From Treponema sp. (GTDB taxonomy: Bacteria > Spirochaetota > Spirochaetia > Treponematales > Treponemataceae), in contig JAGCDP010000011.1 of the NCBI GenBank assembly GCA_017651065.1, forward strand, positions 14,964 through 78,963: DNA of 64,000 nt, in the 5' to 3' direction. Positions 39,318 to 60,728 of the stretch are shown piece by piece. The position numbers were made by a program, and so were the translations under genes. The number at the start of each line of letters is the position of its first letter. Positions within the stretch are counted from its first letter, which is position 1. A model generated the notes under the pieces. It saw nothing but the letters and a program-made list of their open reading frames with translations, had not been told where the DNA came from and did not search any database.

Positions 39318-41249
39318 ATGAATCGACGAATTGCTGTTCTAACATGTGGCTGGAGCTCTCACTTCCTTAAAGGCTTTATTCAGGGAATGATGCGTGCAGT
39401 TGAAGGAAAGAATATAGATATTTATGTATTCAATACCTACAACTACATAGAATATTCAGGTTTCCCGAACAACACAGGTTTTTCTGTATTCAATCTCATA
39501 AACTACGAAGATTTTGACGGCATTGTTATGCTTTCCGATTTAATCAACAATGCCCGTGTGCTTGAACGCGAAAGGCTTAGAATTATAAAAGCAAACAAGC
39601 CTGCAATTACAATCAATAAAAAGCTTCAGGGAATCTGTTGTCTTAAGGTGGACAATTACACGGGAATGTACGAAGTACTTGCTCACCTTATCCGCATGCA
39701 TAATGTTTCAGACATTGCCTATATTTCAGGAAAAGAATCTGCTGTAGATATTGCCGAACGCTACAAGGCATATAAAGCAGTTTTAGAAGACAACAATATT
39801 CCATTCAATAACGAAAAGGTTTATACAATCGATTCGTGCGATTATCACATTGCCTATACTTTTTTTGATGACTATGTAAAATCAGGAAAAAAACTTCCGC
39901 AGGCCTTCTGCTGTGCTAACGATCTTATTGCCATGGCATTGCTCAAGGTTTGCGTAGAAAATAAAATCAAGGTTCCGGAGCAGCTTAAAATAATCGGCTT
40001 TGATAACATGACAGAAACACAATGTACAAAGCCTTCAATTACAACAGTAAATAATAATGCAGAGCTCCTTGGTTCCGAAGCAGTAAACCGCCTTCTCAGG
40101 GGAATCAATCCGCTGCAGACATTGAGTGTAAAAAGTAATCCTGTTTTAAGACAGTCCTGCGGCTGCAGTTATTCGGTTACTTCGGCACAAAATCTTTTTG
40201 CACTTAAAATCCTTGATGAATCAAATAAAAAAGAGGCTTTCGATTCCCATATGGAAACAATGGGAGAAATTTTTACAGAAGCAGCAGACGTTTTTACGCT
40301 TCTTACAAATATCGAAAACTTTTTTGCAAAATCGCATAGCTTTGAAGGAACAGATTTCTGTATCTTTATGAAATCAGACTGGACTTCGGTACTCATAAAC
40401 TCAGCCGAAAATCTTCCACAAAATCTTACATATGGTCCGCAAGTTCAGGCTATCAGCTCTGTGCAGAACAATCAGAAATATCTGCGCGAAATGATTCCTG
40501 TCCGCGATTTAATTCCTTCAAAAATGAAAACAGATGACAAGAGTAATGTATTTTTGTTCATGCCTGTTTTTCATCATTCATATGTTTACGGCTACTATGT
40601 TGCAAAAAATAATCTTACAATGATCGACAACCGCTACGGATATTTGTGGACCCGCAACATGGGAACAGGCATTGAACACTTCCGCAAAAAGAATATGTTC
40701 AAACAGATGAGTCAGCAGTATCTGCGCCTTTCTACAAAAGATGCTCTTTCAGGTGCGCTCAACCGCCAGGGCCTGGAAAAAATGGCAAAGCCTTATTATG
40801 CCCAGAATAAAAAGAACGGGCTTACTACTGTTTTATTCTTTGTTGATATTAATAAGATGAAGCATATCAATGATAAGTTTGGTCATCTTCACGGCGACCT
40901 TGCAGTAAAAACAGTTGCAGCTGCCGTGCTCGAAACAATCCCAAAAAACTGGCTGTGTATCCGCTACGGAGGCGACGAGTTCCTTGTAGTAGGTAACAGC
41001 AAAAATTACAACGGCGAAGATTACTGCACAATGATTAAAGACCGCCTTGCCAAAAAAACATCTGTCATGCATCTGCCATATAATCTTTCTGCCAGCGTAG
41101 GAACCTATTCCGTCCCACCACAGATGGATATAACTTTGGAACAGGCAGTAGAAAATGTAGATAACATCATGTACGAGCAGAAACAGGAATTTCACCGCGC
41201 GGACCCTGAGCTTGTCGAAGGGCAAAAAGAAGTTGATGGAAAAGAATGA
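39318..41249 (+). CDS. Diguanylate cyclase with N-terminal LacI-type sugar-binding domain
   Basis: VDNYTGM, FCCANDLIA, IIGFDN, PSITTV, RQSCGC, then NDKFGHLHGD and an intact RYGGDEF. Confidence 0.9.
   Translation: MNRRIAVLTCGWSSHFLKGFIQGMMRAVEGKNIDIYVFNTYNYIEYSGFPNNTGFSVFNLINYEDFDGIVMLSDLINNARVLERERLRIIKANKPAITINKKLQGICCLKVDNYTGMYEVLAHLIRMHNVSDIAYISGKESAVDIAERYKAYKAVLEDNNIPFNNEKVYTIDSCDYHIAYTFFDDYVKSGKKLPQAFCCANDLIAMALLKVCVENKIKVPEQLKIIGFDNMTETQCTKPSITTVNNNAELLGSEAVNRLLRGINPLQTLSVKSNPVLRQSCGCSYSVTSAQNLFALKILDESNKKEAFDSHMETMGEIFTEAADVFTLLTNIENFFAKSHSFEGTDFCIFMKSDWTSVLINSAENLPQNLTYGPQVQAISSVQNNQKYLREMIPVRDLIPSKMKTDDKSNVFLFMPVFHHSYVYGYYVAKNNLTMIDNRYGYLWTRNMGTGIEHFRKKNMFKQMSQQYLRLSTKDALSGALNRQGLEKMAKPYYAQNKKNGLTTVLFFVDINKMKHINDKFGHLHGDLAVKTVAAAVLETIPKNWLCIRYGGDEFLVVGNSKNYNGEDYCTMIKDRLAKKTSVMHLPYNLSASVGTYSVPPQMDITLEQAVENVDNIMYEQKQEFHRADPELVEGQKEVDGKE
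41203..41223. repeat. Family-2 element in the last codons of the GGDEF gene, at the left edge of the island
   Basis: accctgagcttgtcgaagggc, translated as DPELVEG. Confidence 0.8.
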
Positions 41250-41571
41250 AAAAAAACGATTTTTTGTTCCTGTGCTGTTAGTTTACTTTTTAGTAAGTAT
41301 TGTCGCATCCTGGTTTCAAGAACTTGTTGTTATAAAGATAAAAATCTTTTCAGATGTAGTTTTTCTGGGACTGTTTATATTGCAGACAATATCTATGATG
41401 TATTATTTATTTATGGAATTTACAAAACTAGAACCAAATCTTATTAATATGCTTGGCTATGCTCCATTGATTGTTTTCTTTGCATTCTGGCTTATGCGGG
41501 ATATAAAACTGTTAAAGAAAATCCTGTCAGAAAACAGTATGAAGGAATTTGATGAAAAACCTTTCAATTGA
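41236..41571 (+). CDS. Small multi-TM protein, putative orphan immunity
   Basis: Start at ATG 41236. C-terminal WLMRDIKLLKK is shared with 44298-44717 (WLVRDIKLLKK). Confidence 0.6.
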   Translation: MEKNEKKRFFVPVLLVYFLVSIVASWFQELVVIKIKIFSDVVFLGLFILQTISMMYYLFMEFTKLEPNLINMLGYAPLIVFFAFWLMRDIKLLKKILSENSMKEFDEKPFN

Positions 41572-41683
41572 TAATCTGTTGCTCTGTCATTAATTTAATG
41601 CTGTCTAGTTATATTTTTCATTTTCTTGCTTTTTGGTTAATTCGTAATATAATAATATTAGATAAATGTATATGTGAGGATAA

Positions 41684-42952
41684 ATGAAAATACAAAAACG
41701 CAGGCTTCCAAAATTCATAGACATCAACACATTTGATTTCACTCCTTATGGCCGTGAGCTTACAAGAGAGGAGTCTTATCGTGTAAATGGTGGAAACGTT
41801 AATGAAGATGTTCATACAGTTCAAAGCGGGGATACTCTTGGAACACTGGTTTATAATTACAACCAGGAACATGGAACAAATCTTACAGTAAACGAAGTTG
41901 CTGCAAATAATGGTATTGATAATCCTGATCTTATATATGTAGGGCAGACGATTAATTTTGGGAATCCTGGTAATAATCAAGAAAAGCCACAAACAGATAC
42001 GTCATCAGATAATTCAACTCCAGACATTACTCCTCAACAGCCGAATCAGTCTTTAATACCGACTTCAATTTATACAAATTCCGGTAATAATGGAAATTAT
42101 AAACCATCTTATTCCACATCTTCAGATTGTTATAACCCAGAATCTTCTGATCCTTGTAATAATAGTTCAAGTAATTATAATGATAGAGAATATCCGAGTA
42201 GTAAGGATGGATTGATAAATACAAATAATAAACGAAATGCGGGAAGTGGAAAGGCTGTAAATTCAATTAATAAAATCTATGTTTCCAGTTTAGGTTATGA
42301 AATAGATTATTATAATAAAATAATAAGGTCACCTCGCAATAATCAAAAGGCATTGTTGGAGGCTTCAGAAAAATTCCTTGCATTTGAGAGGGAAGAACTT
42401 GGTTATACTTTTGAAGTATTATGTGAGAATAGTGAATCTATAAAGTTTTTGAAATATTCAGAAATAGTAAGTTTCATGGGTGAATTGCAGCCAGATGTTG
42501 ACTTCTTTATTGGAATAGATAATAGTTGTAAAACAGCAAATCAAAATAAAGTTGATAAAGAGGTTTTTTTAGAAATTCACAAAAAGAATAATAATAATTC
42601 CGGATATAATGGGATAAATGTTCAAGGTGGTCTTTTAAGATTATCATCAGAATTAAATAATTCTAAAATGACGAATAATATAGCAGGTAGTTTTTCTTTA
42701 GATGTTATGGATGGTGAATATAATATTGAAACAGGCAAAGGATTGAAAGCTTCCGTCGGTTTAAATATATCTACTGTATCTGGTGAAATAGGTATACAGG
42801 GTGATGATTGGAAATTTACAGTAGGGGGAGCTTTGGGCTTAGGAGTATCTGGCGGTTTTGATATAAATGTTCCAGAAAAAAGATTAGCTTTGGATCTTAC
42901 AGCTGTATATGGCATTTCGTTTGTTATAGATTTGCCAGATAGTGGATTTTAA
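41684..42952 (+). CDS. Substrate/toxin A: GG leader, LysM, Ser/Asn linker, Gly-rich C-terminal tip
   Basis: MKIQKRRLPKFIDINTFDFTPYGRELTREESYRVNGG; LysM HTVQSGDTL...NGIDNPDLIYVGQTI; tip contains VGGALGLGVSGG. Confidence 0.8.
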   Translation: MKIQKRRLPKFIDINTFDFTPYGRELTREESYRVNGGNVNEDVHTVQSGDTLGTLVYNYNQEHGTNLTVNEVAANNGIDNPDLIYVGQTINFGNPGNNQEKPQTDTSSDNSTPDITPQQPNQSLIPTSIYTNSGNNGNYKPSYSTSSDCYNPESSDPCNNSSSNYNDREYPSSKDGLINTNNKRNAGSGKAVNSINKIYVSSLGYEIDYYNKIIRSPRNNQKALLEASEKFLAFEREELGYTFEVLCENSESIKFLKYSEIVSFMGELQPDVDFFIGIDNSCKTANQNKVDKEVFLEIHKKNNNNSGYNGINVQGGLLRLSSELNNSKMTNNIAGSFSLDVMDGEYNIETGKGLKASVGLNISTVSGEIGIQGDDWKFTVGGALGLGVSGGFDINVPEKRLALDLTAVYGISFVIDLPDSGF

Positions 42953-42953
42953 T

Positions 42954-43331
42954 ATGGAAAAAAATAGAAAAAGGTATTTTTTCTTTCTCCTTTTATTAGT
43001 TTTTATATTTGGTTTTTTAGTTTTTCTGTCGGTACATAAACCATTATCTGAGAGTGAACCATATGTATATTCAATGGAATTATTGAATCAGAACAAAACT
43101 GTAAAGGAGTATCTGGGTGATAAGATAAAACGTTTATCTGTTATTAAGGTTATAATTGATGAAAATGAGGATGGAAGCGGAAAAGCAGAAATAATTCTTT
43201 TAGTAAAGGGGAATAAAGGAAAAGGCATACTCTATGTTAATTCAATTAAACAAAATAATGAATGGCGTTACAGTAAAATTGAGTTTGATACCAAAACTGG
43301 AAATACTGGTATAATAAATCTAATCAATTAA
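42954..43331 (+). CDS. Single-TM protein resembling the bacterial Coa1-like family, putative immunity to A
   Basis: Starts 1 nt after the toxin A stop. TM followed by Y..SMELLNQN..VKEYLG...G.GKAEI...VKGNKGKG.LY......W. Confidence 0.55.
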   Translation: MEKNRKRYFFFLLLLVFIFGFLVFLSVHKPLSESEPYVYSMELLNQNKTVKEYLGDKIKRLSVIKVIIDENEDGSGKAEIILLVKGNKGKGILYVNSIKQNNEWRYSKIEFDTKTGNTGIINLIN

Positions 43332-43346
43332 ATAAAAGCAGAAATA

Positions 43347-43712
43347 ATGAAGAAGAACCTGATTATTAATTTTTGTATAACCTTTCTCATAAATATAATT
43401 ATTGCTACTTTATTAGTTATTTTTTCTCCCCATATTGATTATTTTCTAAAGACTTTAATGATACTAGGTATTTCGATTATTATATATACTCTTTTGAATT
43501 TGTTTTTTTATTTTAGTGTAAAATTTAATTCTTCTTTGTGTATAGGAAATGCGGTTTTATTTATTGGATTAATTATTTTTTCATTTATGGTAATAATAGG
43601 CTTTTTTTACGTACTTATATGTCATGAATATTTTTTTGTTATTATGATTATACCTGTATTAACAACTTCAATAAATTGGTTGATAATCATTTATAATGAA
43701 AAATATACATAA
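43347..43712 (+). CDS. Four-TM small protein, putative orphan immunity
   Basis: 121 aa, almost entirely hydrophobic, very AT-rich. Confidence 0.55.
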   Translation: MKKNLIINFCITFLINIIIATLLVIFSPHIDYFLKTLMILGISIIIYTLLNLFFYFSVKFNSSLCIGNAVLFIGLIIFSFMVIIGFFYVLICHEYFFVIMIIPVLTTSINWLIIIYNEKYT

Positions 43713-43789: not shown

Positions 43790-44284
43790 ATGAAAAAACA
43801 AAAAAATAGCCTTCCAAAATTCATAGACATCAACACATTTGATTTCACACCTTACGGCCGTGAGCTTACAAGAGAAGAGGCTTATCTTGTTAATGGTGGA
43901 GACGTTAATGAAGATGTTCATACAGTTCAAAGCGGGGATACTCTTTGAACACTAGTTTACAATTATAATCAGGAACACGGAACAAATAGATCTCTAAATT
44001 CAGAAGGAGAATGGATTATAAACAGTAAAACAGATGTTAGTGGTTATAATTGGTATATGAAGGGATTTAATATATATGACATGAATATTGTTTACAGAAA
44101 TGATAAGATTGATATTGAAAAAACAGCTGAAAATATTATAGGGTCCATAACCACCTGTACGACATATTATGCATTAGATCATATGAATGATAAAATGTAT
44201 AAGGAAAACTGTGTTACTGCATTGTATAATACTATTGCATTTCAACCTTCTGGAAGATACTTTAAAAATACTATGGGAGAATAA
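43790..44284 (+). pseudogene. Silenced toxin cassette: GG leader, half LysM (nonsense at 43946), different C-terminal tip
   Basis: MKKQKNSLPKFIDINTFDFTPYGRELTREEAYLVNGGDVNEDVHTVQSGDTL* (GGA changed to TGA). The frame continues TLVYNYNQEHGTN then RSLNSEG..., in frame with the 44057-44284 ORF. Confidence 0.8.
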
Positions 44285-44297: not shown

Positions 44298-44717
44298 ATG
44301 GAAAACAGTTCAATAAAAAGAAGACCCAAAGATATAGTTTTTCTTTTCCTACGTTTCTTGTACCTGGTGGTTATTTATTGTTGTTTATTTATGCCACCTG
44401 GGCCAACTTCCTTTGTTTTTTTTCCATTAGATTACAGATTCTTTTTTTCTCATTTAGTTGTGTATTTTATTTTTGCTATTATTTTTTTGTTCATCTCAGA
44501 AAAGAAATTCGTAAGAATTAAATATGCTTTTGATCTATTGTTTGTCGTTCTTCTCTCAATAATGACTATTATAGTATTTTGTTCAGGATTGAATTCATCA
44601 GATGGGGGAGGCATTTTAGTTATCTTCATTATTTTTCAATATTTTCCTATTTACATTCCTTTTATAATCTGGCTTGTGCGCGATATAAAATTGTTAAAGA
44701 AAAATTCCAATAGATGA
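44298..44717 (+). CDS. Four-TM protein, putative immunity to the 43790 cassette
   Basis: ATG 44298 lies just after the cassette stop. Paralogous C-terminus to 41236-41571. Confidence 0.6.
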   Translation: MENSSIKRRPKDIVFLFLRFLYLVVIYCCLFMPPGPTSFVFFPLDYRFFFSHLVVYFIFAIIFLFISEKKFVRIKYAFDLLFVVLLSIMTIIVFCSGLNSSDGGGILVIFIIFQYFPIYIPFIIWLVRDIKLLKKNSNR

Positions 44718-44945: not shown

Positions 44946-45935
44946 ATGAAAACAAAACGTAAACTTCCCAAATTCATAGATATCAACACATTTGATTTCA
45001 CACCTTACGGACGTGAACTTACAAGAGAAGAGGCGTATCTTGTTAATGGCGGGCAGGTAATGACACCGGAAGACCAGTATGCAATGGCACAGGCCCATGC
45101 CCGCGGTGACAAAGAAACCATGGATGCAATTGTTGCAAAGTATGAAAATAAGGATAAACAGGAGCCAGAGCAGACAAGTTCTGCTACAGGCAGTTCATCG
45201 GGTTCTGGTACATCTTCTCAGGAGACTGATCCAAATACGGTAATTCCTATGAATTTTGATGCACTGCCAAGACCTGAAGGAACAATGTCTCCTGACGAGC
45301 AGGCAATGATGGCCATGTATGATGAGATGATAAAAACAGGTTCAGGCCGGAACATGCAATATGGAACACAGGCAGGTTATGTAGTGAATCAAGAAGGCGC
45401 CGCAACCCTTGGCCATGCAGGATGGTTTGTTCAGACTTATAATAATAAATTTGTTTTCTTTGAAGTTATAGGTATTTCACCTAAAGCAAATGGTTTAGAA
45501 GAGGATACTCCATCATACACTACAGAAAAAGATAACTTAAACAAAGCTACAACAGTTTTAAGTAATTCACCGGTAGGAAAGGTAACCATGCCTCTTGCAG
45601 CATTATCGGGCTTTCCTACACAGGCAGGTTGTCTTGTCAGAGTTTATGATTCGAAAGAAGAAATGAAAGAAGAATTGAGTAAAATGGGTTTTGATGAAAT
45701 GGTAGTATTTAATACGAATTCCGTACAGAATGCATATATTTATGAAGCGTCTGTAGAATTCGGGAAGAGTTTTACTGGATATGAGGTGCTTACAAACAGC
45801 TGCGGAATAGCAGGAAGGGATTCGTTAACCGTAGAGGGAAGTGGAATAAAATGTTACTTTGATACACCAGTACCTAATATAATAGACGATTCTCTGTTTG
45901 TAAGTAACGGAAACTGCTGGTGGGAAAAACTCTGA
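44946..45935 (+). CDS. Substrate/toxin B: GG leader, helical MTPEDQ module, permuted papain-like (His...NxC) domain
   Basis: Leader ..ELTREEAYLVNGG; LGHAGW (His157) precedes YEVLTNSC (Cys286). Confidence 0.75.
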   Translation: MKTKRKLPKFIDINTFDFTPYGRELTREEAYLVNGGQVMTPEDQYAMAQAHARGDKETMDAIVAKYENKDKQEPEQTSSATGSSSGSGTSSQETDPNTVIPMNFDALPRPEGTMSPDEQAMMAMYDEMIKTGSGRNMQYGTQAGYVVNQEGAATLGHAGWFVQTYNNKFVFFEVIGISPKANGLEEDTPSYTTEKDNLNKATTVLSNSPVGKVTMPLAALSGFPTQAGCLVRVYDSKEEMKEELSKMGFDEMVVFNTNSVQNAYIYEASVEFGKSFTGYEVLTNSCGIAGRDSLTVEGSGIKCYFDTPVPNIIDDSLFVSNGNCWWEKL

Positions 45936-45943: not shown

Positions 45944-46843
45944 ATGAAAAAAAAGGTTGTTTTTGTTTTACTGGTTTTCCTTTTTTCATTTTACTGTCAT
46001 GCTGCAGAAAGTATTAAAGTTCCCATGATATACAACAACTGGAATGAAAGGATTATAGTATTCGGAGACACAGTAATTCCTAATCAACCCTATCACTGTT
46101 GTGCTTATGACGGTAAACAGCAAAAATTCTGGTTACATATAGCCGAGGAACATACTTCTACCTTTAATCAAATTAATATAAATGGACAGATAGAAGAGAC
46201 AATAACCATAACCTTTGGTAGTTTTGGAGCTTGGGATAATGGTCCGTTTTTTGTTTATGATAATCTTGCAGTTGTTTGGGCTTATACTAAAAAAAATAAA
46301 ATGATTATTGTAAATCTGGAAACAAAAGAATTCAAAGTTTTTGACTTGTCAAAATACAGTTATTATCCTGTTTATGGTTTTCGTGACAATAAAGTTTTTA
46401 TCTTTAATAATGTAGAAGATAAAGTAAAGTATTATGACTGCCTTACAGGTGAGCTTTTTGATGCCAAAACAGACTTACAGGGATACGGTTTTATGCCGTT
46501 TGGAAATGCATATGTAGGCTTGAATAAAAAGGGAAAAATTGTAATACAGAAGTTTGATACTGGGGAAATTATAGAAACAAAAATTCAAGGCATCAGAAAA
46601 AGAACCTCAGGTGATGTTAATGACAGATACTATATGACAGAAAAGTACCTGTATTTTTCAAAGAAAGACAGAGGATATAGTTTTACGCATGGAATTCAGC
46701 TTTTCTTTGCAAAATTCTTTTATGATCTTAACCACGAACCAATTCCCCATAAGTGGTACCGCTATTCTCTTGAAACAGGAGAAATAGAAGAAATAAAGAC
46801 AGACTATCCCTTTATAAACCTGCTTGGAGTAGTTGAGGAATAA
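45944..46843 (+). CDS. Sec-exported beta-rich protein, putative immunity to B
   Basis: Signal peptide MKKKVVFVLLVFLFSFYCHA. Paralog of 53295-54194 and 57121-58011. Confidence 0.7.
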   Translation: MKKKVVFVLLVFLFSFYCHAAESIKVPMIYNNWNERIIVFGDTVIPNQPYHCCAYDGKQQKFWLHIAEEHTSTFNQININGQIEETITITFGSFGAWDNGPFFVYDNLAVVWAYTKKNKMIIVNLETKEFKVFDLSKYSYYPVYGFRDNKVFIFNNVEDKVKYYDCLTGELFDAKTDLQGYGFMPFGNAYVGLNKKGKIVIQKFDTGEIIETKIQGIRKRTSGDVNDRYYMTEKYLYFSKKDRGYSFTHGIQLFFAKFFYDLNHEPIPHKWYRYSLETGEIEEIKTDYPFINLLGVVEE

Positions 46844-46881: not shown

Positions 46882-47292
46882 TTATTTCCAGAAAACATTA
46901 GTTATTTTAATACTGTCTGTTTTCCATTTTTCATTTTGTTTGTCGTTTATTCTTGTATCAAATTCAAATTGTATGGGAATAAAAACAGAAGAGCCTGGAC
47001 TGATTGTAATGTCAAAAGATACTGTTTTATAGTATTCTCTTTCTGTTGATTCACAGGAAATGCTGACTGTTGAATTGTAAATATCAATGTTGCCTGTGTT
47101 TGTTATTTTAAGCGTTGCATTTAAATAACGTATATAATAAGTTGCTGTTTCATACTTGTATTCTTCTTGTGTGGTATAAGCAGAAAGCAGTTCCGCATTA
47201 CCACACGGGGCATCAAACAATTTACAGCCGTTAAGTTGCAGTACAATAAACAAAAGTATAATAGTAGTTCCAAGTTTAAAACAGTTTTTCAT
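46882..47292 (-). CDS. Small lipoprotein, last gene of the exporter operon
   Basis: Lipobox LNGC, RBS GGAGG, overlaps the stop of the TolC-like gene. Confidence 0.7.
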   Translation of the reverse strand: MKNCFKLGTTIILLFIVLQLNGCKLFDAPCGNAELLSAYTTQEEYKYETATYYIRYLNATLKITNTGNIDIYNSTVSISCESTEREYYKTVSFDITISPGSSVFIPIQFEFDTRINDKQNEKWKTDSIKITNVFWK

Positions 47293-49965: not shown

Positions 49966-49967
49966 AG

Positions 49968-53286: not shown

Positions 53287-53294
53287 GGCTGTGC

Positions 53295-54194
53295 ATGAGA
53301 AAGAAAGTTCTTTTTGTGTTAATGGTTTTCTTTTTCACATTTTACTCTCATGCTGCAGAAAGCATTGAACCTCCTCTGATATATTACAGAGACAATTCTA
53401 TAATAATCGGTAATACAGTAGTCCCTGTTCCTCTGGGAAATACTGGAAGCTACGAATACGCTTTTGACGGTAAAAGGCAAAAGTTGTGGTTTCAGGATTC
53501 AGGGAGACATACATCTACCTTTATCTGCGTTAACACTAAAGGGCAGACGGAAGAAACCTTTACGATAGATGTTGGAAAAATAAACCTTATAGGCGGCCGT
53601 TTCTTTGTTTTTGATAACAAGGCATTAATCTGTGTTCAAAGTAAGAAACACACAAGACTTATTGTAGATCTTGAAACAAAAGAATACCAGCTCATTGATA
53701 TTACAAATATGGGATATAAAGAAATAAGTTGTTTTTATGACAATAAAATCTTTTTCTTTAGCGAAAGTGTAGAAAAGAGTGTAATGTATTTTGATTGCTT
53801 TACAGGTGAGATTTTTTATGCAGAAACAGACCTGCAGGGATACGGCTTTATGCCGCTTACAAATGCATATGTGGGCTTGAATAAAAAGGGAAAAATAGTA
53901 ATACAGAAGTTTGATACAGGGGAAATTATAGAAACAAATATAAGTGGCATCAGGGGAAGGCCCTTGGGCAAGGTTAATGACAGATATTATATGACAGAAA
54001 AATATCTGTATTTTTCAAAGAAGGACAAATGGTATAGTTTTACACATGGAATGTTCTTTGCAAGATTCGTTTTCGGCCTTGGACCAGTACAGGTTGCCCA
54101 TAAGTGGTACCGCTATTCCCTTGAAACAGGCGAAATAGAAAAAATAAAGACAGACTATCCATTTATAAACCTGCTAGGAGTAGTTGAGGAATGA
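53295..54194 (+). CDS. Putative immunity to B' (Sec signal, beta-rich)
   Basis: Paralog of 45944-46843 with a variable N-terminal half and conserved C-terminal half. Confidence 0.7.
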   Translation: MRKKVLFVLMVFFFTFYSHAAESIEPPLIYYRDNSIIIGNTVVPVPLGNTGSYEYAFDGKRQKLWFQDSGRHTSTFICVNTKGQTEETFTIDVGKINLIGGRFFVFDNKALICVQSKKHTRLIVDLETKEYQLIDITNMGYKEISCFYDNKIFFFSESVEKSVMYFDCFTGEIFYAETDLQGYGFMPLTNAYVGLNKKGKIVIQKFDTGEIIETNISGIRGRPLGKVNDRYYMTEKYLYFSKKDKWYSFTHGMFFARFVFGLGPVQVAHKWYRYSLETGEIEKIKTDYPFINLLGVVEE

Positions 54195-55384
54195 AAAAAA
54201 TAAAGCATAAGCTTCCAAAATTCATAGACATCAACACATTTGATTTCACTCCTTATGGCCGTGAACTTACAAGAGAAGAAGCATATCTTGTAAACGGTGG
54301 CAGTACTGTAGAAGATACACACACAGTCCAGAGCGGTGATACTCTTGGAACACTTGTTTATAATTACAACCAGGAACATGGAACAAATCTTACAGTAAAC
54401 GAGGTTGCAGCTAATAACGGGATAGATAACCCGGATCTTATATATGTGGGGCAGCAAATAAATTTTGGGAATTCAACTCCTGCTTCAACCAATTCCGCAC
54501 CTGATAACAACATGTCTTCACCAGATGTTCCAAGCCCTTTAAACGAACAGTCGTCAACACAGCATAGTAATACTTCAACAAATACAAATGGACATACAAA
54601 CTCTGTTCAGGCAAGTACAACTGTTACAGGTAGTACGGGTAGTTCCAGTTATTCAGCTACCGGAAATTCTTCATCTGGAGAAAACGCAACAGTAAATAAT
54701 ATGACTTCATTTCCGATCGGTCCAGAATGTTATAATCCGAATGATCCAAATCCTGACAAGAGATACAACGGACAGGATTACGGGAATGAACATCTGATGG
54801 TAGTACAGCGTAGTGATGCCAGAAATTTTGAAATACTCAGGGATTATTATCTTACTGTAGGCCAGTATGGTGCAGCAGGAACCATTTCCTATGACGGAAT
54901 TGGCCTGACCAATGAAAATGGACAGATTGTAGATGTTCTGAAAGATGAAAAATCTATTCTTGAGTATTCCATAACCCTTGGAATTCCTACTAAACAGGGG
55001 GCACATGGTGATTTGTTTTTTACAGCTGAAGCTGATTTAGTTGCTGCAACAGGGATAGAAGGGGCTGTATCTTTGGTATTTGATTTAGATAACTTAATGG
55101 ATTCTGGCATCAACTTTAGTATTGGATTTGCAACAGGATGTAATATAGGCTTAGGCATTGGTGTCGGCTACGTAAAAAGAGAACTTGAAGGTCCTATGCC
55201 AATTGGAATAGATGGTAATTTAGGATATTTGCCTTTTAGTTTTACAGTAATGACTGATGAAGAAGGGTATAATGGAGGATGCCTTGCATATGGACCTGGA
55301 AAAGGATTATCAACATCATCCCAAAAATCAATTACGATTAGCCCGAATAGTGTGATAGATTTGCTTAATAAAATAGGGGAATAA
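54191..55384 (+). CDS. Substrate/toxin C: GG leader, LysM, Ser/Thr/Asn linker, Gly-rich tip
   Basis: LysM nearly identical to toxin A. Tip AEADLVAATGIEGAVSLV...GFATGCNIGLGIGVGY. Confidence 0.8.
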   Translation: MKKIKHKLPKFIDINTFDFTPYGRELTREEAYLVNGGSTVEDTHTVQSGDTLGTLVYNYNQEHGTNLTVNEVAANNGIDNPDLIYVGQQINFGNSTPASTNSAPDNNMSSPDVPSPLNEQSSTQHSNTSTNTNGHTNSVQASTTVTGSTGSSSYSATGNSSSGENATVNNMTSFPIGPECYNPNDPNPDKRYNGQDYGNEHLMVVQRSDARNFEILRDYYLTVGQYGAAGTISYDGIGLTNENGQIVDVLKDEKSILEYSITLGIPTKQGAHGDLFFTAEADLVAATGIEGAVSLVFDLDNLMDSGINFSIGFATGCNIGLGIGVGYVKRELEGPMPIGIDGNLGYLPFSFTVMTDEEGYNGGCLAYGPGKGLSTSSQKSITISPNSVIDLLNKIGE

Positions 55385-55693
55385 ATGAAATTAAGATATT
55401 ATTTTGGATTAAGTATAAGAATGTATTTTGAAATAAATCTTTTTGTTTATCCATTTTTGGATTTTTTCCTTTTTATTATTTTAGAATCATTAGGATTAAA
55501 TATTCTAGTTTGTGGGATATTGTTTATCATAATATTTGTTATTGTAGGAATAAGAACCTATAGTATAAAATGTCCAGAATGTAATACCAAGCTAATAGAA
55601 ACATATAGAATTAACTCAAAATATTATGGTGGAGCTTTTCACAGGGCTCCAAAAAAATGCCCTTGTTGCGGAATAGATTTAGATAAAGTGTAA
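55385..55693 (+). CDS. Two-TM plus zinc-ribbon (CxxC...CxxC) protein, putative immunity to C
   Basis: Abuts the toxin C stop; IKCPECNTKL...KKCPCCG. Confidence 0.65.
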   Translation: MKLRYYFGLSIRMYFEINLFVYPFLDFFLFIILESLGLNILVCGILFIIIFVIVGIRTYSIKCPECNTKLIETYRINSKYYGGAFHRAPKKCPCCGIDLDKV

Positions 55694-55722
55694 TAAAAGA
55701 GTAAGATTCAGAGGTGAAAAAG

Positions 55723-55869
55723 TTGTTACAAAGAAAAAAGAAACCATATCCCAATTTATACGCCTGCGATTACTCCTGGTTTGCCCGCGAAATGACAGAA
55801 GAAGAGCTGTATACGGTTAATGGCGGGCAGGTAATGTCGCAGTCAGATCAGATGACATTAAGGAATTAA
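55723..55869 (+). pseudogene. Class-II GG-leader mini-ORF (leader plus 13 aa), not in the ORF track
   Basis: RBS GAGGTG and TTG start: MLQRKKKPYPNLYACDYSWFAREMTEEELYTVNGG then QVMSQSDQMTLRN*. Confidence 0.7.
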
Positions 55870-55873: not shown

Positions 55874-56476
55874 ATGAAAAAGCATTTTGTCTTGCTAGTT
55901 ATTATAATAGTTTCTTTTTTGAGTTGTACAAATACTAAAAATAGTGATTTAATTGAGCAAACTAACAGTTTATGTTGGTGGAATAGTATGGAAGATGCTG
56001 AAAAGGCTCTTGATATCCTTGACAGAGCCATTGAAATAGAACCCAAGGAATGGAAAGCCTATTCTATTGAATTACAAATATATGATACCTGGTGTCATAA
56101 AACAGAAGAGCTTTCAAACAATTATATTGCTTTAAAAGATGTATATGATAGATGGATTATTAATGGAAATACATTTTCATTTGTTCAACTATTTGGTTAT
56201 GCAAATGTTCTTTTCTGTTTAGGAGAAAGAGAGAAAGCAAAAGATTATTATGACAAAATGAGTTCTTCGGTAATGAATGATAATAGTTTATTGTTAGATG
56301 AACAGAACTATGTAGCGTATATTTTGTCTGGGATATTAAATGGATTAATTGTTAAAGAAAATTTCAGTGATTACAAAATGAATGCTTATGATGAAAACGG
56401 GGTAAATGAATATCTTTTTCAGATTATTGTAAATGATAGCCAAGAAGATATTATAGAAACTTATTGTACAACATAG
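55874..56476 (+). CDS. TPR-like lipoprotein, putative orphan immunity
   Basis: Lipobox FLSC; helices AEKALDILDRAIEIEP and GEREKAKDYY. Confidence 0.62.
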   Translation: MKKHFVLLVIIIVSFLSCTNTKNSDLIEQTNSLCWWNSMEDAEKALDILDRAIEIEPKEWKAYSIELQIYDTWCHKTEELSNNYIALKDVYDRWIINGNTFSFVQLFGYANVLFCLGEREKAKDYYDKMSSSVMNDNSLLLDEQNYVAYILSGILNGLIVKENFSDYKMNAYDENGVNEYLFQIIVNDSQEDIIETYCTT

Positions 56477-56567: not shown

Positions 56568-56834
56568 ATGAAAATACGAACAGAATACAAATTAACAGGT
56601 TGGGTAATTCCAGTTATTTTATGCATTTGTGCTTTGATATTTCCAAAACCTCTGATTTTTCTAGCCTTTATATTTATAGATATTTTAATTCATGAACGAA
56701 TTGCTTGTCCGAATTGTAAAACTAAAATAAGTTCTTTTTATAATCCAAAATCTAAAAATTTTAAAGGCTTACGTTTCGGTTTTCGTTTTAGATTTCCAGA
56801 CAAATGTCCAAATTGTGGTTGTGATTGGGAGTAA
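56568..56834 (+). CDS. Two-TM plus zinc-ribbon protein, orphan paralog of 55385-55693
   Basis: IACPNCKTKI...NPKSK.F.G...PDKCPNCG. Confidence 0.65.
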   Translation: MKIRTEYKLTGWVIPVILCICALIFPKPLIFLAFIFIDILIHERIACPNCKTKISSFYNPKSKNFKGLRFGFRFRFPDKCPNCGCDWE

Positions 56835-56839: not shown

Positions 56840-57112
56840 ATGATAAGAAAACATAAACCACATCCCAATTTAAACTCCTACGATTACTCCTGGTTTGCCC
56901 GCGAAATGACAGAAGAAGAGCTGTATACGGTTAATGGCGGGCAGGTAATGTCGCAGGCAGACCAGTATGCGATGGCCCAGGCCCATGCCCGCGGTGACCA
57001 GGCTGCTATGGATGCAATTGTCGCAAAGAAGAGTTTTTCTGGATATGAATTGATTACAAACAGCTGCGGAATAGCGGCAAGCAACAATAACTGCTGGCGG
57101 GAAAAAATCTGA
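56840..57112 (+). pseudogene. Internally deleted B-type toxin with class-II leader
   Basis: MIRKHKPHPNLNSYDYSWFAREMTEEELYTVNGG-QVMSQADQYAMAQAHARGDQAAMDAIVAK / KSFSGYELITNSCGIA / ASNNNCWREKI. Two in-frame deletions relative to B/B' remove the catalytic His. Confidence 0.82.
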
Positions 57113-57120
57113 GGTTGTAT

Positions 57121-58011
57121 ATGAAAAAGAAGGTTGTTTTTGTTTTACTGGTTTTCTTTTTTTCATTTTATTGTCATGCTTCAGAAGCCATTGAAATTCC
57201 CTTGATATATAAGAAGAGAGATTCTTTTATAATGATCGGTGAAACAGAGGTTTCTGTCCCTCAAGGATACAGTTGTGCTTTTGACGGTAAACAACAAAAG
57301 CTATGGTTTCATTCTGCTGCGGGAAACACTTCTACCTTTACTCAGATTAATAAGAACGGAGAGACTGAGAAGATAATTACAATAGACTATGGTAATCATT
57401 GTGCTTGGGATAATGGACCTTTTTTTGTCGTTGATAATATAGCTTTTGTTTGTGCTCTTGATAAAAAAAATGCTGTGATTTTTGTTAACCTTGAAACAAA
57501 AGAATTCAATTTTTTTGATTTATCAAAATATGAATATTATCCCATTTATGGTTTTTATGACAAAAGAGTTTTTTTCTATAACAATGTAGATGATAAAGTA
57601 AGGTATTATGATTGTCTTACAGGCGAGGTATTCGATGCAGAAACAGACCTTCAGGAGTACGGCTTTATGCCGCTTGTAAATGCCTATGTGGGCTTGAATA
57701 AAAAGGGAAAAATAGTAATACAGAAGTTTGATACTGGGGAAATCATAGAAACCAAAATAAGTGGAATCAGGGGAAGAACCAGTGGCAATGTTCGTGAAAG
57801 ATACTATATGACAGAAAAGTATCTGTACTTTTCAAAGAAGGATAGATGGTATAGTTTTACACATGGAATGTTCTTTGCAAGATTCGTTTTCGGCCTTGGA
57901 CCAGTACAGGTTGCCCATAAGTGGTACCGCTATTCTCTTGAAACAGGAGAAATAGAAGAAATAAAGACAGACTATCCCTTTATAAACCTGCTTGGAGTAG
58001 TTGAAGAATGA
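57121..58011 (+). CDS. Third B-family putative immunity protein
   Basis: Signal peptide; C-terminus nearly identical to 53295-54194. Confidence 0.7.
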   Translation: MKKKVVFVLLVFFFSFYCHASEAIEIPLIYKKRDSFIMIGETEVSVPQGYSCAFDGKQQKLWFHSAAGNTSTFTQINKNGETEKIITIDYGNHCAWDNGPFFVVDNIAFVCALDKKNAVIFVNLETKEFNFFDLSKYEYYPIYGFYDKRVFFYNNVDDKVRYYDCLTGEVFDAETDLQEYGFMPLVNAYVGLNKKGKIVIQKFDTGEIIETKISGIRGRTSGNVRERYYMTEKYLYFSKKDRWYSFTHGMFFARFVFGLGPVQVAHKWYRYSLETGEIEEIKTDYPFINLLGVVEE

Positions 58012-59018
58012 AAAAAATAAAGCATAAGCTTCCAAAATTCATAGACATCAACACATTCGATTTTTCACCTTACGGCCGTGAGCTTACACGAGAAGAGTCG
58101 TATCTTGTAAATGGTGGACGCCAGATAGAAAATTCAATAGCTGCGCAGGCGTTGGCAAATCCTGGAGATACAGTTACAGATAGTAATGGAAAAACTTCTG
58201 TTCTAACGGAATCTGATATAAAATGGGCTCAGAAACAAATAGGTTATAATGAACCGACAGGGGATGTTTCAGATACATCTGAAGTAATTGAGACAACACC
58301 AGTACAAACTAATCAGTGTGAACTTTCAAAAAAGGAAGAAGAGATTAAAGGACAAAATGAAAACAGCGGAAATACTACTGTAAAAAAGACAGATGATCCT
58401 TCTCAATCAGGCAATAACAATGATAATGCATCTACATCTTTGATATTTGATCCACATGATCCAACTCGAATAATAGCAAATCTTGATGATCCAGAATCAT
58501 TGAAAGCCGCCGCAGAATTATTGTCTGACCCTTTTTTAGGCTATACAGTTACAGCTTATGGTGAAGAAACGGGAAAAATAAAGAATTTTAAAAATTATTC
58601 AGAAATATATGTATATCTATCAATGAATGATAAAACATCTGTTTTTCAGGATTTTTTCGATAGATTAATGAGATTTCATTTCGAAGAAAGAGATTCAAGA
58701 AATATTATTACAGAATCATATCAAGATATTTTGGAATCTGCTCAAAACAATGGGGATTGGAAACTGTTATCTCCAGAAATGTCAAAATATCATCAGAATG
58801 GATTTGTTTTTGATGAATTAAAATTCGTTTGTAAAGACGGAAGAGAAGCGGTTTTTACAAAAGATTTTTCTCCTGATGGTTCTTATGAATTATATTTAGA
58901 TCCAAGATATAAAGGAACGTATAACTATTGTGATCCTATAAATAATCCAATAGGTCATTTTTTTAAAGATATGGTTCCATATTATTTAACAGGATTCAGA
59001 AATGAAAGAACTCAATAA
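58008..59018 (+). CDS. Substrate/toxin D: GG leader, ALANPGDTVT module, linker, enzyme-like tip
   Basis: Leader ..ELTREESYLVNGG; tip contains YHQNG, DGREAVF, GTYNYCDP and GHFFKDMVPY. Confidence 0.75.
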   Translation: MKKIKHKLPKFIDINTFDFSPYGRELTREESYLVNGGRQIENSIAAQALANPGDTVTDSNGKTSVLTESDIKWAQKQIGYNEPTGDVSDTSEVIETTPVQTNQCELSKKEEEIKGQNENSGNTTVKKTDDPSQSGNNNDNASTSLIFDPHDPTRIIANLDDPESLKAAAELLSDPFLGYTVTAYGEETGKIKNFKNYSEIYVYLSMNDKTSVFQDFFDRLMRFHFEERDSRNIITESYQDILESAQNNGDWKLLSPEMSKYHQNGFVFDELKFVCKDGREAVFTKDFSPDGSYELYLDPRYKGTYNYCDPINNPIGHFFKDMVPYYLTGFRNERTQ

Positions 59019-59511
59019 AAGATTTATAACTGGTATTATTATTGTTGGGGTTGCAATGGGATTTTTGTTTTGTAAAACTGATTATATTATTAGTTTTGAA
59101 AGTGAAGAATTTAATACTCTCAATGGTAATGTCTTTAAGAAATTAGAAACAACAAATGATATTTACCGTACTAGAATCATGACTACAGTATGGTTAGAAT
59201 TAATCTTTAAAAGGTTTTCTAAAAATACGACTTTTGAAAAAATTACAATAACAAACATTATTCTGGAAGATGACAAGGGTAATGAAATTGAACATTTTCA
59301 AGATGTGTCTTTAGAGGCAAATGGGATTATGCATGAAGAAAATGGAAGTTTTTATCAATTATATTCGTTCAGAATAGAAGATGAAGCTTTAAGAATAAAA
59401 ATAAAAAAGTATAAGACAAAATACATACTTTTAAAGTATGAAATAAATGGGGAAAAATATTCAGAGAAACTTAAACGTGTTGTGGAAAAATATCCAATAT
59501 TGAGAACATAA
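59002..59511 (+). CDS. Membrane-anchored or lipoprotein, putative immunity to D
   Basis: Overlaps the toxin D stop; N-terminal hydrophobic segment ends FLFC. Confidence 0.62.
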   Translation: MKELNKRFITGIIIVGVAMGFLFCKTDYIISFESEEFNTLNGNVFKKLETTNDIYRTRIMTTVWLELIFKRFSKNTTFEKITITNIILEDDKGNEIEHFQDVSLEANGIMHEENGSFYQLYSFRIEDEALRIKIKKYKTKYILLKYEINGEKYSEKLKRVVEKYPILRT

Positions 59512-59541
59512 AAAAATGAATGCGATATATGAGAGGCAGAC

Positions 59542-60204
59542 ATGAAGAAGAGTTCTTTTTTAATTCTATTATTAATATGTGTTTTTATTTGTTCGTGTTC
59601 AAAACAAACTATAATAGTTAATGAAAATACAATGCAACTAAATAAGGGATCAACATTAATTCAAGAATTATACCTTGGGCGTTTTTATATTATTCAAAGT
59701 GAAGAAATTGAAAATGGCATAAAAGTTGAATATGAATATATTGATGATTTAGATGAAGTTGGGTATCCAAGATATGGACAATATGATGGGGAATTATATT
59801 TTACTATATCTGATAATAAACTTGTACCTGTCCTTAATATTGTAAATGTTTATCGGCAGACTTTTGGTTCGTGCATTAAACTCTTGAATAAGACGGAAGA
59901 AAATGGTGTCATAAATATAGAATATGATTTTCAATTATATGACATAGCAAGAGCTGCCGGATTTGGGACAGTAAAAATAAGCTATGAGATTATAAATAAT
60001 CCTTCAGGAGAATTAGAATATAAAGTAATTGATTATTCGAGTGATTTAATAAGTCGTTTTAAGATGACAGTTCCAAACGATCCAAACAGCATGATGCCGC
60101 GAATGGATGGAGACATAATAAATCAGATAGATTTCCCAATAGAAGAATTCAATAAAATAGCTGATCAGGTATATGAATATATTCAATACAGTGAAGGATT
60201 ATGA
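59542..60204 (+). CDS. Lipoprotein, putative orphan immunity
   Basis: MKKSSFLILLLICVFICSC lipobox, RBS GAGG. Confidence 0.62.
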   Translation: MKKSSFLILLLICVFICSCSKQTIIVNENTMQLNKGSTLIQELYLGRFYIIQSEEIENGIKVEYEYIDDLDEVGYPRYGQYDGELYFTISDNKLVPVLNIVNVYRQTFGSCIKLLNKTEENGVINIEYDFQLYDIARAAGFGTVKISYEIINNPSGELEYKVIDYSSDLISRFKMTVPNDPNSMMPRMDGDIINQIDFPIEEFNKIADQVYEYIQYSEGL

Positions 60205-60393
60205 TGATACTAAAACGCAAATATCCCAAATTCATAGACATCAACACATTTGATTTCACAGGCGCTTGCAAATCCAGGAGAAATACTTGAAATTATTTAT
60301 AACACAAGTCCCTTTATTATAAATCAAATATTGAATAATTCTGGGATGGGAAAGTTTGTGCAATTAGATTATATTGAATTGGATGGAAAATAG
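60201..60393 (+). pseudogene. Collapsed D-type toxin cassette
   Basis: MMILKRKYPKFIDINTFDFT is joined out of frame to caggcgcttgcaaatccagga (QALANPG, compare 58146-58166). That frame continues EILEIIYNT...ELDGK* into the next gene's GTG. Confidence 0.75.
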
Positions 60394-60728
60394 TGAATAT
60401 AGCCATAATTATTTTAAATATAATAGATGTTTTATTAATCTATATAATTGATGTAAAAATGAATAATATTTTTGCAGAAGTATTATTTGACATATTTGGA
60501 GGAGCTATAATTGCTTTAATATGGATAAAAATAGATGAATACTATTCCCGAACAGAACAGAATTTAAAATGGACCTCTTTCTTGTATTTGATTTTTACTT
60601 TATTCTATTTAATAGTTTCATTGATAAGAAACGAATTAAAGTTTGTTCAGCCTGTATGTTCTCCCGTTATTCTTGTTTGTATTTCATATTATGCAATTAG
60701 AATTAAAAAAAGGATTGAACAAAAATAG
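60393..60728 (+). CDS. Small multi-TM protein, putative immunity of the collapsed cassette
   Basis: GTG overlaps the remnant's TAG; hydrophobic and AT-rich. Confidence 0.55.
   Translation: MNIAIIILNIIDVLLIYIIDVKMNNIFAEVLFDIFGGAIIALIWIKIDEYYSRTEQNLKWTSFLYLIFTLFYLIVSLIRNELKFVQPVCSPVILVCISYYAIRIKKRIEQK

Follow-up and report, generated by a model that had tools for sequence, protein, structure and literature searches.

The Cassette Locus and Its Exporter

The window analyzed here is a 64,000-nt stretch of DNA from Treponema sp. (GCA_017651065.1, contig JAGCDP010000011.1, positions 14,964-78,963 of the forward strand). At 41236..60728 this gut Treponema carries an array of gene cassettes around a bacteriocin-type exporter. 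G+C content is 28-37% over 42001-60000 versus 35-44% in the rest of the window, and counts of promoter-like sites (95 vs 94) and terminators (7 vs 9) show no excess over shuffled sequences. A gene for a periplasmic-sensor GGDEF protein flanks the locus. Contig C29 of the same genome (2.13 Mb; G000, 75% complete) holds a second such locus, with its own PCAT operon and leaders.

A sequence-only reading of this DNA had proposed that a PCAT with an intact C39 triad, an HlyD, a TolC-like protein, and a lipoprotein form one operon, and profiles, motifs, and homologs all bear this out. The four genes lie on the minus strand. The PCAT (49968..52130), composed of C39 peptidase, ABC membrane, and ATPase domains, scores 607 bits against TIGR01193 (cut-off 524). 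It retains C39 residues Q28, C34, H115, and D131 (numbered from 52190) along with intact Walker A, LSGGE, Walker B, and H-loop motifs. Translation is assigned to the ATG at 52130, which has a ribosome-binding site; the TTG at 52190 given by the ORF finder falls inside a promoter-like site. Assignment to the RTX/HlyB type is not indicated, since the catalytic Cys is present and TIGR01846 falls below its cut-off, and profile searches of the cargos matched no RTX family.

The HlyD-family adaptor (48823..49995) is recognized by PF13437 (HlyD_3; 74 bits, above cut-off), with TIGR01843 below cut-off at E 2e-45. The family search of the window gave no Pfam OEP match for the protein encoded at 47276..48832, and its alignment matched no PDB sequence, but six of seven direct homologs tested pass the OEP cut-off. 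The label TolC-like outer-membrane factor is therefore supported through its relatives. The last gene of the operon (46882..47292) encodes a small conserved lipoprotein, whose lipobox-like signal was read off the sequence and whose homologs adjoin the operon in most related loci.

A Shared Double-Glycine Leader

Nine copies of a leader ending in the consensus RE[LM]TxEExYxVNGG were identified in the window, all on the plus strand. They begin at 41684, 43790, 44946, 52294, 54191, 55714/55723, 56834/56840, and 58008, with a cut copy at 60201. The NGG is invariant and is preceded by L/M(-12), E(-9,-8), and V(-4). The leader consensus of class II bacteriocins and microcins is L(-12), E(-8), V/I(-4). 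Two of the window copies matched PF10439 and TIGR03949 weakly, below cut-off.

A profile built for the leader recovered the nine copies already noted when it was run over the 2.13-Mb genome. It gave 11 matches, comprising these nine and two beside the C29 PCAT operon, with none elsewhere. Because all 11 lie at two PCAT operons, their clustering is not a product of chance. The window locus revealed no small peptide that combines a GG leader with an intact core.

Intact Cargos and Their Tips

Five leaders head intact cargos of 422, 329, 330, 397, and 336 amino acids (mature mass 32-42 kDa), each of which overlaps or abuts its downstream gene. The five cargos stand as first described, but their variable tips represent four types and not five, because the tips at 44946 and 52294 are members of one family (75% identical).

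Three of the four tip types (T1, T8, and, by a weak match, T5) recur at the ends of Rhs proteins. Cargo T1 (41684..42952, plus strand) consists of the GG leader (residues 1-37), a LysM domain (44-90), a linker, a pre-tip module (206-268), and a glycine-rich beta-type tip whose family also occurs at the ends of Rhs proteins L183 and L185. Cargo T8 (58008..59018, plus strand) has a leader, a hairpin module, a linker, a pre-tip module (146-207), and a tip that is 52% identical to the post-DPDG C-terminus of Rhs proteins of 1893 and 1611 amino acids. The Rhs cores preceding T8- and T1-type tips pass TIGR03696, and the pre-tip module is also found after an Rhs core (L185). Profile searches found no Rhs family or YD-repeat core in the cargos. 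A pattern search found no Rhs core motif among the ORFs of G000, a genome that is 75% complete, and plasmids gave no match for three of the window tips.

Cargo T5 (54191..55384, plus strand) comprises a leader, LysM, a linker, and a beta-barrel-like tip. Its low-confidence Atlas model aligns with PT-VENN/DUF637, haemagglutinin proteins, and VapA-like barrels, and the tip weakly matches sequence behind the end of an Rhs core in L173, where the core is partial and under cut-off. The beta-rich tips are predicted to be membrane-inserting domains.

The remaining cargos, T3a (44946..45935, plus strand) and T3b (52294..53286, plus strand), carry two alleles of a tip with a predicted TseH-like permuted NlpC/P60 fold (His157, Cys286 in T3a), and their N-terminal parts are 97% identical. 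The T3 tip model reached a pLDDT of 89.5 with a 20-row alignment, compared with 41 for a shallow one. It superposes on TseH (6v98) with Z 13.2 and rmsd 3.0 over 145 aligned residues at 12% sequence identity, followed by YiiX at Z 8.5; Foldseek returned E 5e-3 and probability 0.96. His precedes Cys in the family, and both are invariant in 20 sequences. The tip alignment matched no PDB sequence, and complex prediction for the tip with its partner scored 0.01, a value taken as evidence neither for nor against pairing. By analogy with TseH and Tox-Act1 (PMC12994826), T3 tips are predicted lipid-acyl hydrolases.

Some of these folds might suggest that the cargos are aimed at gut eukaryotes (protozoa, fungi, host cells) and not at bacteria. 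The VapA-like resemblance of the low-confidence T5 model is compatible with such targets, as are lower-ranked structural matches of permuted papain folds in eukaryote-directed effectors. We nevertheless regard this as highly improbable, given that peptidoglycan hydrolase tips are common and that a dedicated envelope partner for each tip implies a target also present in the producer.

Partners, Broken Cassettes, and Orphans

The coupling of a small membrane, lipoprotein, or periplasmic gene to each cargo, and the presence of broken cassettes and orphan genes in the gaps, were both upheld. In the window, three cassettes have suffered deletions and five or more genes are orphans; all of the genes that follow are on the plus strand. 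The first is an orphan membrane gene (41236..41571) that is 27-41% identical to a family trailing "type A" permuted-papain-like tips. The T1 partner (42942..43331), Coa1-like and membrane anchored (PF08695, 53 bits; cut-off 22), travels with T1 in a conspecific strain. Behind it is an orphan membrane gene (43347..43712), a weak homolog of which (40% over 63 aa, E 9e-7) comes immediately after an Rhs protein that ends in a T1-family tip.

Three of the leaders open short ORFs whose counterparts elsewhere are complete cargos (P0031, P0021, P0017); the window forms carry internal deletions or stops. One broken cargo (43790..44284) retains the leader, a LysM start with a premature stop, and, after an internal deletion, the last part of a permuted-papain-like tip of type A, matching residues 4-69 and 276-392 of P0031. 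It is followed by a membrane partner (44298..44717) whose family also lies behind type A tips in L037, L041, and L001. The stub at 55714..55869 fuses the leader to the final codons of a cargo; in G032 the partner that comes next here is preceded by a complete 281-aa cargo, and the junction falls at a shared AGATCAG. The partner remaining after this deletion is a TPR-like lipoprotein (55874..56476), 99% identical to L051:11958 and with a homolog in L159 that follows a tip of the same family. A T3-type cargo with an internal deletion (56840..57112) matches residues 6-66 and 269-301 of P0017 and precedes a third T3-partner allele (57121..58011; 67-77% identical to the other alleles) that has no intact cargo.

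The T3a partner (45944..46843) has a signal peptide and belongs to no known family; its 18 homologs are all unnamed, and its allele tracks the tip allele. The T3b partner (53268..54194) is 61% identical to it and shares 89% identity with its counterpart behind the matching allele in L150. T5 is followed by a two-helix membrane protein with CxxC pairs (55385..55693), whose family lies behind T5 tips in L041, L059, and L070 and includes an orphan (56568..56834) at 38-43% identity. The membrane-anchored T8 partner (59002..59511) has a homolog, 37% identical, behind a T8-type cassette in L070. Next comes an orphan lipoprotein (59542..60204) that weakly resembles a gene behind an Ntox44 cargo (32% over 68 aa, E 9e-6). 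The cut leader (60201..60260) preserves its first 20 codons at a place occupied in L150 by an intact 393-aa cargo. For the final orphan membrane gene (60393..60728), the homolog search found none.

Contigs from a separate run (X3) match the window in eight stretches with zero differences, the junctions at 43916-45083 and 55813-56910 among them, and RNA-library contigs X18-X20 match it in 150-300-nt pieces only. The X3 contigs end at leader repeats, so the cassette order, taken from short-read assemblies spanning those repeats, is without independent bridging. An assembly artifact is thus ruled out for cassette content but not fully for order.

The Family across Genomes

An initial scan of the genome collection with the TolC-like protein gave no match. 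Homologous operons gathered by this protein alone number 11, and 10 of them have a GG cargo of at least 200 aa nearby; the eleventh, located where its contig begins, adjoins a cut leader. This extends the association of leader and PCAT to other genomes. The leader profile is positive in 22 of 400 family genomes, but 10 of the 22 supplied the profile, which makes that overlap circular, and it is not counted as linkage. Among 10 other leader-positive genomes of the same genus, a PCAT was found in four, one of them weakly. Five genomes that are 92-95% complete and have leader cassettes yielded no C39 domain. Two of these have stub leaders only and one has an HlyD piece at a contig end; the intact cargo of G258 is 424 aa long, and in G014 a 564-aa cargo lies near a contig end.

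These genomes without a C39 match would fit toxin-immunity pairs whose whole cargo does not pass through the PCAT, with release by lysis, vesicles, or another route, or of a short processed piece only. Known active-C39 cargos of about 10 kDa or less (PMC8277102) agree with this alternative, and the export role of TepA1 was left without a genetic test in PMC11879956. It is quite unlikely, all the same, because NGG is retained in 144 of 150 family members, the cargos lack a Sec signal, large cargos adjoin 10 of 11 operons, and the locus showed no small GG-leader peptide whose core is intact. Furthermore, T. denticola GG proteins occur near full length in the supernatant and are absent from the outer-sheath fraction (PMC11879956).

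Tips are highly diverse, as opposed to invariant C-termini: 136 fall into 48 clusters behind one leader and three to four N-modules, and 21 of 27 tip-sharing pairs bear the same tip on different N-modules. Structure and family searches identified a TseH fold, Ntox44, Tox-JAB-2, M23, lysozyme, and Rhs-shared tips. Named families (Ntox44, DUF4329, M23, NlpC/P60, lysozyme) account for 11 of 102 cargos scanned, nine above cut-off, and 87 of the 102 had no Pfam match whatever. In PMC3482391, DUF4329 is called Tox-JAB-2, and both it and Ntox44 are predicted nucleases. Despite such tips, the partners of Ntox44 and Tox-JAB-2 cargos here carry signal peptides; a literature search on Ntox44 found no paper bearing on envelope partners.

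Partners follow tips. Across genomes, 12 of 13 cassette pairs that share a partner family share the tip family, compared with two of 193 N-module-sharing pairs that share a partner, and 2000 shuffles gave at most 4, with kin not independent in these counts. At the script's threshold, only 12 of the 27 tip-family-sharing pairs share a partner family. Partner alleles likewise follow tip alleles (98/91%, 91/89%) and not N-termini (97/61%). By a simple hydropathy rule, a hydrophobic signal is present in 0 of 45 cargos, 45 of 45 downstream genes, and 521 of 1322 control ORFs. A conspecific strain whose exporter is 99% identical has its cassettes reordered as units, with one gained and one missing. 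Cassette dN/dS values (0.2-0.5) exceed those of the exporter (0-0.06) yet stay below 1, so positive selection is not shown.

The cargos could be exported without being weapons, as variable proteins for wall remodeling, scavenging, or adhesion, with the downstream proteins acting as anchors, chaperones, or receptors. LysM, M23, M15, and NlpC/P60 are also housekeeping domains, the majority of tips are unnamed, and the T. denticola supernatant killed none of the strains tested (PMC11879956). We consider such roles unlikely in view of tips common to Rhs C-termini and named toxin families, partner alleles that track tip alleles, and partners that outlast deleted tips and accumulate as orphans, including in genomes whose only leaders are stubs. 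A role for the tips as kin-recognition or signaling ligands, with the downstream proteins as receptors, is very improbable: many tips are predicted enzymes with conserved catalytic residues, and the partners are unrelated families without signaling domains. This holds even though peptide pheromones, too, carry GG leaders (a point taken up in PMC11879956), every partner is envelope located, and a periplasmic-sensor GGDEF gene flanks the locus.

A Proposed Toxin-Immunity System

Members of this family have a common anatomy and leader, diverse tips that include Rhs and toxin-family domains, tip-specific partners, shuffled cassettes, and stubs that keep their partners. Association with the PCAT operon beyond this genome, broad tip diversity, tips common to Rhs and known toxin families, tip-specific partners, orphans, and shuffling had been predicted as hallmarks, and all were found on testing. 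We infer cleavage, export, toxicity, and immunity, and assign a probability of roughly 70% to an envelope-targeting polymorphic toxin-immunity system that uses a leader-cleaving type I exporter.

In such a system, the C39 domain would cleave each cargo behind its NGG leader, and the PCAT-HlyD-TolC channel would export the mature 32-42 kDa protein. Binding or crossing of the target envelope would fall to the N-module (LysM, small hairpin, or short helix) and to the pre-tip module of 60 residues. There, the variable tip likely harms competitor bacteria, and the membrane or periplasmic product of the downstream gene likely shields the producer. Recombination where leader and module DNA is nearly identical would create new weapons, and old cassettes would become stored immunity through loss of the DNA between short repeats.

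Literature searches found no interbacterial toxin system of this kind described in spirochetes. If the proposal is true, it adds a delivery route to the polymorphic toxin catalog and a candidate spirochete weapon in the ruminant gut, by an export route whose other known cargos are tiny peptides. Whether an active-C39 PCAT carries large cargo becomes testable, which bears on transport mechanism and on the use of GG leaders for protein secretion. About 48 tip clusters, mostly unnamed, are now cataloged with a candidate inhibitor for each.

Comparison with Known Systems

In Caulobacter, the antibacterial proteins CdzC/CdzD leave by type I secretion and have an immunity gene, but they are small glycine-zipper proteins and do not form an array of swapped enzymatic tips. 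Class II microcins and bacteriocins share with the window an active-C39 PCAT, an adaptor, a TolC-like channel, a GG leader, and a partner gene for each cargo. Active-C39 transporters carry substrates of up to about 10 kDa according to one review (PMC8277102), whereas the window cargos are multidomain proteins of 32-42 kDa, and many tips of the family are predicted enzymes. The T3 tips resemble Vibrio cholerae TseH and Salmonella Tox-Act1 (PMC12994826) in fold, His-before-Cys order, and envelope-located partner; those effectors are delivered by a T6SS, and the T3 tip, a predicted enzyme, has 12% sequence identity.

Polymorphic toxins (Rhs, CdiA, LXG, MafB; PMC3482391) likewise have a constant N-terminus, swapped tips, a tip-specific neighbor, and orphans, and Ntox44, Tox-JAB-2, and Rhs tips are common to both. 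The window cargos differ in lacking YD repeats, a filament, and VENN or LXG domains, and the partners of this family are all envelope proteins. The terms "T1SS" and "type I secret" are absent from the part of PMC3482391 covered here.

The closest relatives are at the tepA1-tepB1 locus of T. denticola, where a PCAT and HlyD lie by GG-leader proteins (TDE_0416, TDE_0422, TDE_0424; PMC11879956, PMC4947327). This locus is also treponemal, has GG cargos far above 10 kDa (167-614 aa), and interleaves lipoprotein genes. Large GG-leader cargos beside a Treponema PCAT are thus already known, and the sequence-only suggestion that the combination was undescribed does not hold for this part; toxin domains, an immunity role, and polymorphism went unrecognized in those reports and killing was not seen. 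GG proteins of about 61 kDa occur in culture supernatant and gave zero inhibition of seven oral strains (PMC11879956). The T. denticola leader is short, with GG at 17-18, compared with 36-37 residues in the window, and its cargos are paralogs 84-98% identical (two are 89% identical end to end; PMC11879956) in place of swapped tips.

Loci L129-L132 of genus g35 have the T. denticola architecture, with a PCAT 52-53% identical to that of the window. The leader profile matches them weakly, and they contain PF09710 lipoproteins that are absent from the window; one has a T8-family tip, and M23 domains occur in others. We lean, somewhat beyond even odds, toward a toxin system found across treponemes in which an active-C39 PCAT moves multidomain toxins of 30-70 kDa, well beyond its supposed size limit by a factor of several, bearing envelope-attacking tips only, drawn from the Rhs pool. 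The dozens of unnamed tip and partner families would then be new toxin-immunity pairs. One branch of this system would comprise the "bacteriocin-like proteins" of T. denticola together with their clustered lipoproteins, which offers a possible reading of these GG proteins.

The Export Operon and Its Leaders

The locus centers on a minus-strand operon encoding a PCAT (49968-52130), an HlyD adaptor (48823-49995), a TolC-like protein (47276-48832) and a small lipoprotein (46882-47292). The PCAT scores 607 bits with TIGR01193 (cut-off 524), and its C39 residues Q, C, H and D and every ATPase motif are intact. Pfam OEP is passed by six of seven direct homologues of the 518-aa TolC-like protein. Eight whole double-glycine (GG) leaders and one cut leader (60201-60260) lie around the operon, in a region whose G+C is below that of the flanks. 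An operon with an intact C39 domain amid nine leaders is therefore present, as the sequence-only reading claimed. That reading also described five intact leader-headed proteins with variable tips. These proteins, termed cargos here, do number five (T1, 41684-42952; T3a, 44946-45935; T3b, 52294-53286; T5, 54191-55384; T8, 58008-59018; all plus strand; 329-422 aa) and their tips do vary, but only four tip types occur among them.

A leader profile detects 11 copies in the genome, nine of which are at this locus. The other two lie next to a second PCAT-HlyD-TolC-lipoprotein operon, on contig C29 (L001:3297-12779, or G000:C29:63296-72778), and the PCATs of the two operons are 71% identical. The second operon is accompanied by two intact GG cargos (426 and 412 aa), together with an orphan fragment of a tip and a membrane partner gene in duplicate.

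Two further sequence features were observed in the window. A 75-nt block is repeated upstream of three cargos (41621-41695, 44883-44957 and 52231-52305), with a divergent PCAT promoter-like site (52161-52190) near it; the block is likely a shared promoter and recombination site. Between a CoA-ligase-like gene and a GGDEF gene, at 39025-39087, two 27-nt arms form an inverted repeat that is 85% paired.

Linkage of Cargos to the Exporter

To select loci without using the leader, 400 genomes of the family were searched with the TolC-like protein, which was found in 10 genomes of the same genus (11 operons) and weakly in one more. A GG-leader protein of at least 200 aa is encoded in the fetched flanks of 10 of the 11 operons, and the eleventh sits at a contig start next to a cut leader. 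The expected association of leader proteins with PCAT-HlyD-TolC thus extends to other genomes. Across the order, 61 of 400 genomes encode PCATs. Among 20 further fetched PCAT loci, 13 have GG-leader ORFs of at least 150 aa (counted by eye), two encode ordinary bacteriocin-like peptides of 73-76 aa, one has a 121-aa ORF and four have none.

Linkage is not absolute: G226 and G269 carry satellite cassette arrays apart from the operon, and five genomes of 92-95% completeness (G258, G305, G309, G014 and G327) yielded no C39 domain. G258 encodes an intact cargo, and G327 has a piece of HlyD at a contig end. Only stub leaders, left where the cargo is deleted, were found in G305 and G309, within strings of partner-type genes (L153:4386-9480 and L154:8659-12156, respectively). 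These strings look like defence-only immunity arrays.

Eighteen of the 19 closest HlyD loci belong to assemblies named Treponema sp., several of which came from rumen or from the faeces of horses, and the window stretch occurs in sequencing runs of animal gut metagenomes. The remaining locus is a 6.3-kb contig assigned to Anaerobutyricum (L063) that carries the treponemal operon (HlyD 60% identical), which reflects either mis-binning or transfer. Elsewhere, a 570-aa ORF with an HlyD N-terminus (L131:5355-7067) is followed by no separate TolC-like gene and is possibly a deletion-fusion.

Cargo Anatomy and Tip Diversity

Cargos share one order of parts: a leader of 24-47 aa ending in NGG, an N-module, a linker rich in S, T, N and G, in some cases a pre-tip module, and the tip. 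Among 133 cargos the N-module is LysM in 9, a small hairpin in 89, a short helix in 23 and another type in 12, and a 60-aa pre-tip module occurs in 13, including T1 and T8. Searched against 1.84 billion proteins, a profile built on leader and module hit 283 clusters (50% identity); among the matches listed, 144 of 150 carry [IV][ND]GG close to the N-terminus and 106 of 150 are at least 250 aa long. These 106 and 30 locus cargos supplied 136 tips, which fall into 48 clusters at BLAST E 1e-5, a threshold that may split distant families. Tip diversity is accordingly a property of the leader family at large, as had been proposed for the window.

Of 102 cargos scanned, 11 have a tip that Pfam assigns to an enzyme or toxin family, 9 above cut-off (DUF4329, three; M23, three; Ntox44, two; NlpC/P60, two; lysozyme, one), and 87 gave no Pfam match. 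Beside PCATs, locus cargos carry Ntox44, DUF4329, M23, M15 and NlpC/P60. Ntox44 and DUF4329 (Tox-JAB-2) are listed as polymorphic toxin domains in a published catalogue (PMC3482391).

Some loci hint at modified cargos. A subset of cargos has a CGGG-type motif directly after GG and adjoins radical SAM/SPASM genes (L035:4257-8297, L040:4391-7819 and L140:11172-16526), and the N-termini of these large proteins may be modified in the manner of RiPPs. A GT4 glycosyltransferase gene recurs next to PCAT loci (confirmed at L134:3277-4932 and L142:6029-7735, with similar ORFs in L135, L138, L139, L141 and L143); the cargos there have Ser/Gly-rich linkers and may be glycosylated.

Three of the window's tip types match stretches of Rhs proteins. 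The T8 tip is 52% identical to the post-DPDG stretch of Rhs proteins of 1893 and 1611 aa. The T1 tip family follows Rhs cores in L183, where a weak homologue of the window's orphan membrane gene (43347-43712) comes next, and in L185, where the pre-tip module sits between core and tip. In L173, a T5-family match (E 2e-6) lies behind a partial Rhs core that scores below its cut-off, and a low-confidence Atlas model of T5 aligns with PT-VENN/DUF637, haemagglutinin proteins and VapA-like barrels.

A fold search, suggested with the original reading as a check on the tips, places T3 (modelled from 20 sequences; pLDDT 89.5) closest to TseH (Z 13.2), followed by YiiX and further NlpC/P60 proteins of the permuted type. 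The T3 tip has an invariant His157 and Cys286. Phospholipase activity has been shown for TseH and its relative Tox-Act1, the latter acting from the periplasm (PMC12994826).

One protein (L184:1162-2316) lacks a GG leader and has a beta-rich stretch of the T1 family ahead of an Ntox44 domain. Because of this arrangement, the beta-rich stretch may in some settings act as an entry domain.

Partner Genes

By a hydropathy rule, a signal or membrane segment is present in the genes directly downstream of cargos (partners) in 45 of 45 cassettes from 22 genome labels, one of these ORFs being possibly spurious, in none of the 45 cargos, and in 521 of 1322 control ORFs, which include spurious ones. Even the genes behind the predicted nucleases Ntox44 and Tox-JAB-2 bear signals.

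Among cross-genome pairs, which include kin and so are not independent, 12 of 13 with a common partner family also share a tip family (2000 shuffles reach at most 4), compared with 2 of 193 pairs with a common N-module that share a partner. At the threshold used, only 12 of the 27 pairs with a common tip family also have a partner family in common. In the T3 alleles the partner tracks the tip (98/91% and 91/89%); N-termini can be 97% identical yet the partners only 61%. The downstream gene is thus tied to the tip rather than to the N-terminus, as expected of the immunity gene that it had been taken for.

Cassette Shuffling

Three conspecific loci (L149-L151), probably from one strain, have an exporter 99% identical to the window's and the same flanks. 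In these loci T1 and its partners have relocated to the opposite side, T5 is absent, and the position of the window's cut leader is taken by a new cassette. Genome G032 has different content at the same chromosomal site, with a whole 281-aa cargo at the position of the window's stub (55714-55869), whose junction is a 7-base repeat. Stubs with partners retained likewise occur in L070. Contigs from another sequencing run match cassette interiors exactly and break at repeats. Cassette genes are under purifying selection, yet they change faster than the exporter (dN/dS of 0.2-0.5 versus 0-0.06).

Precedent in Treponema denticola

The combination of cargo and exporter is partly anticipated in Treponema denticola, for which two papers describe three GG-leader proteins (167, 614 and 607 aa) upstream of PCAT and HlyD (PMC11879956, PMC4947327). 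The former reports supernatant bands of ~61, 43 and 14 kDa, no inhibition of seven oral strains, and an unobtainable deletion of one lipoprotein-cargo pair; its authors leave the function of the GG proteins open (PMC11879956).

In that study, the failed deletion spanned a lipoprotein gene immediately downstream of an intact cargo (PMC11879956). Self-poisoning could be offered as an alternative to the authors' recombination account; close paralogues remain in that genome.

One review puts active-C39 cargo at ~10 kDa or less (PMC8277102). The terms “T1SS,” “type I secret” and “double-glycine” are absent from the main part of the toxin catalogue, with one “double-glycine” counted in its remainder (PMC3482391). 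No description of PCAT-exported polymorphic toxins was found in the mostly non-subscription literature covered, including the available portions of PMC12136450, PMC6099711 and 10.1101/2025.07.08.662037.

Proposed Mechanism and Comparison with Known Systems

On all genomic tests run, the window locus works like a polymorphic toxin system. In the mechanism we propose, the C39 domain would cut each cargo after NGG and the tripartite channel would export the mature protein. The N-module and pre-tip module would engage the envelope of a neighbour, whose wall or membrane the tip would attack; kin would be protected by the envelope partner. We assign this mechanism as a whole a probability of roughly 0.7. 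The export parts resemble those used for microcins, but the cargos are larger than the size limit for microcins. The delivery parts of Rhs, CdiA and RTX systems, in turn, are absent from the window system.
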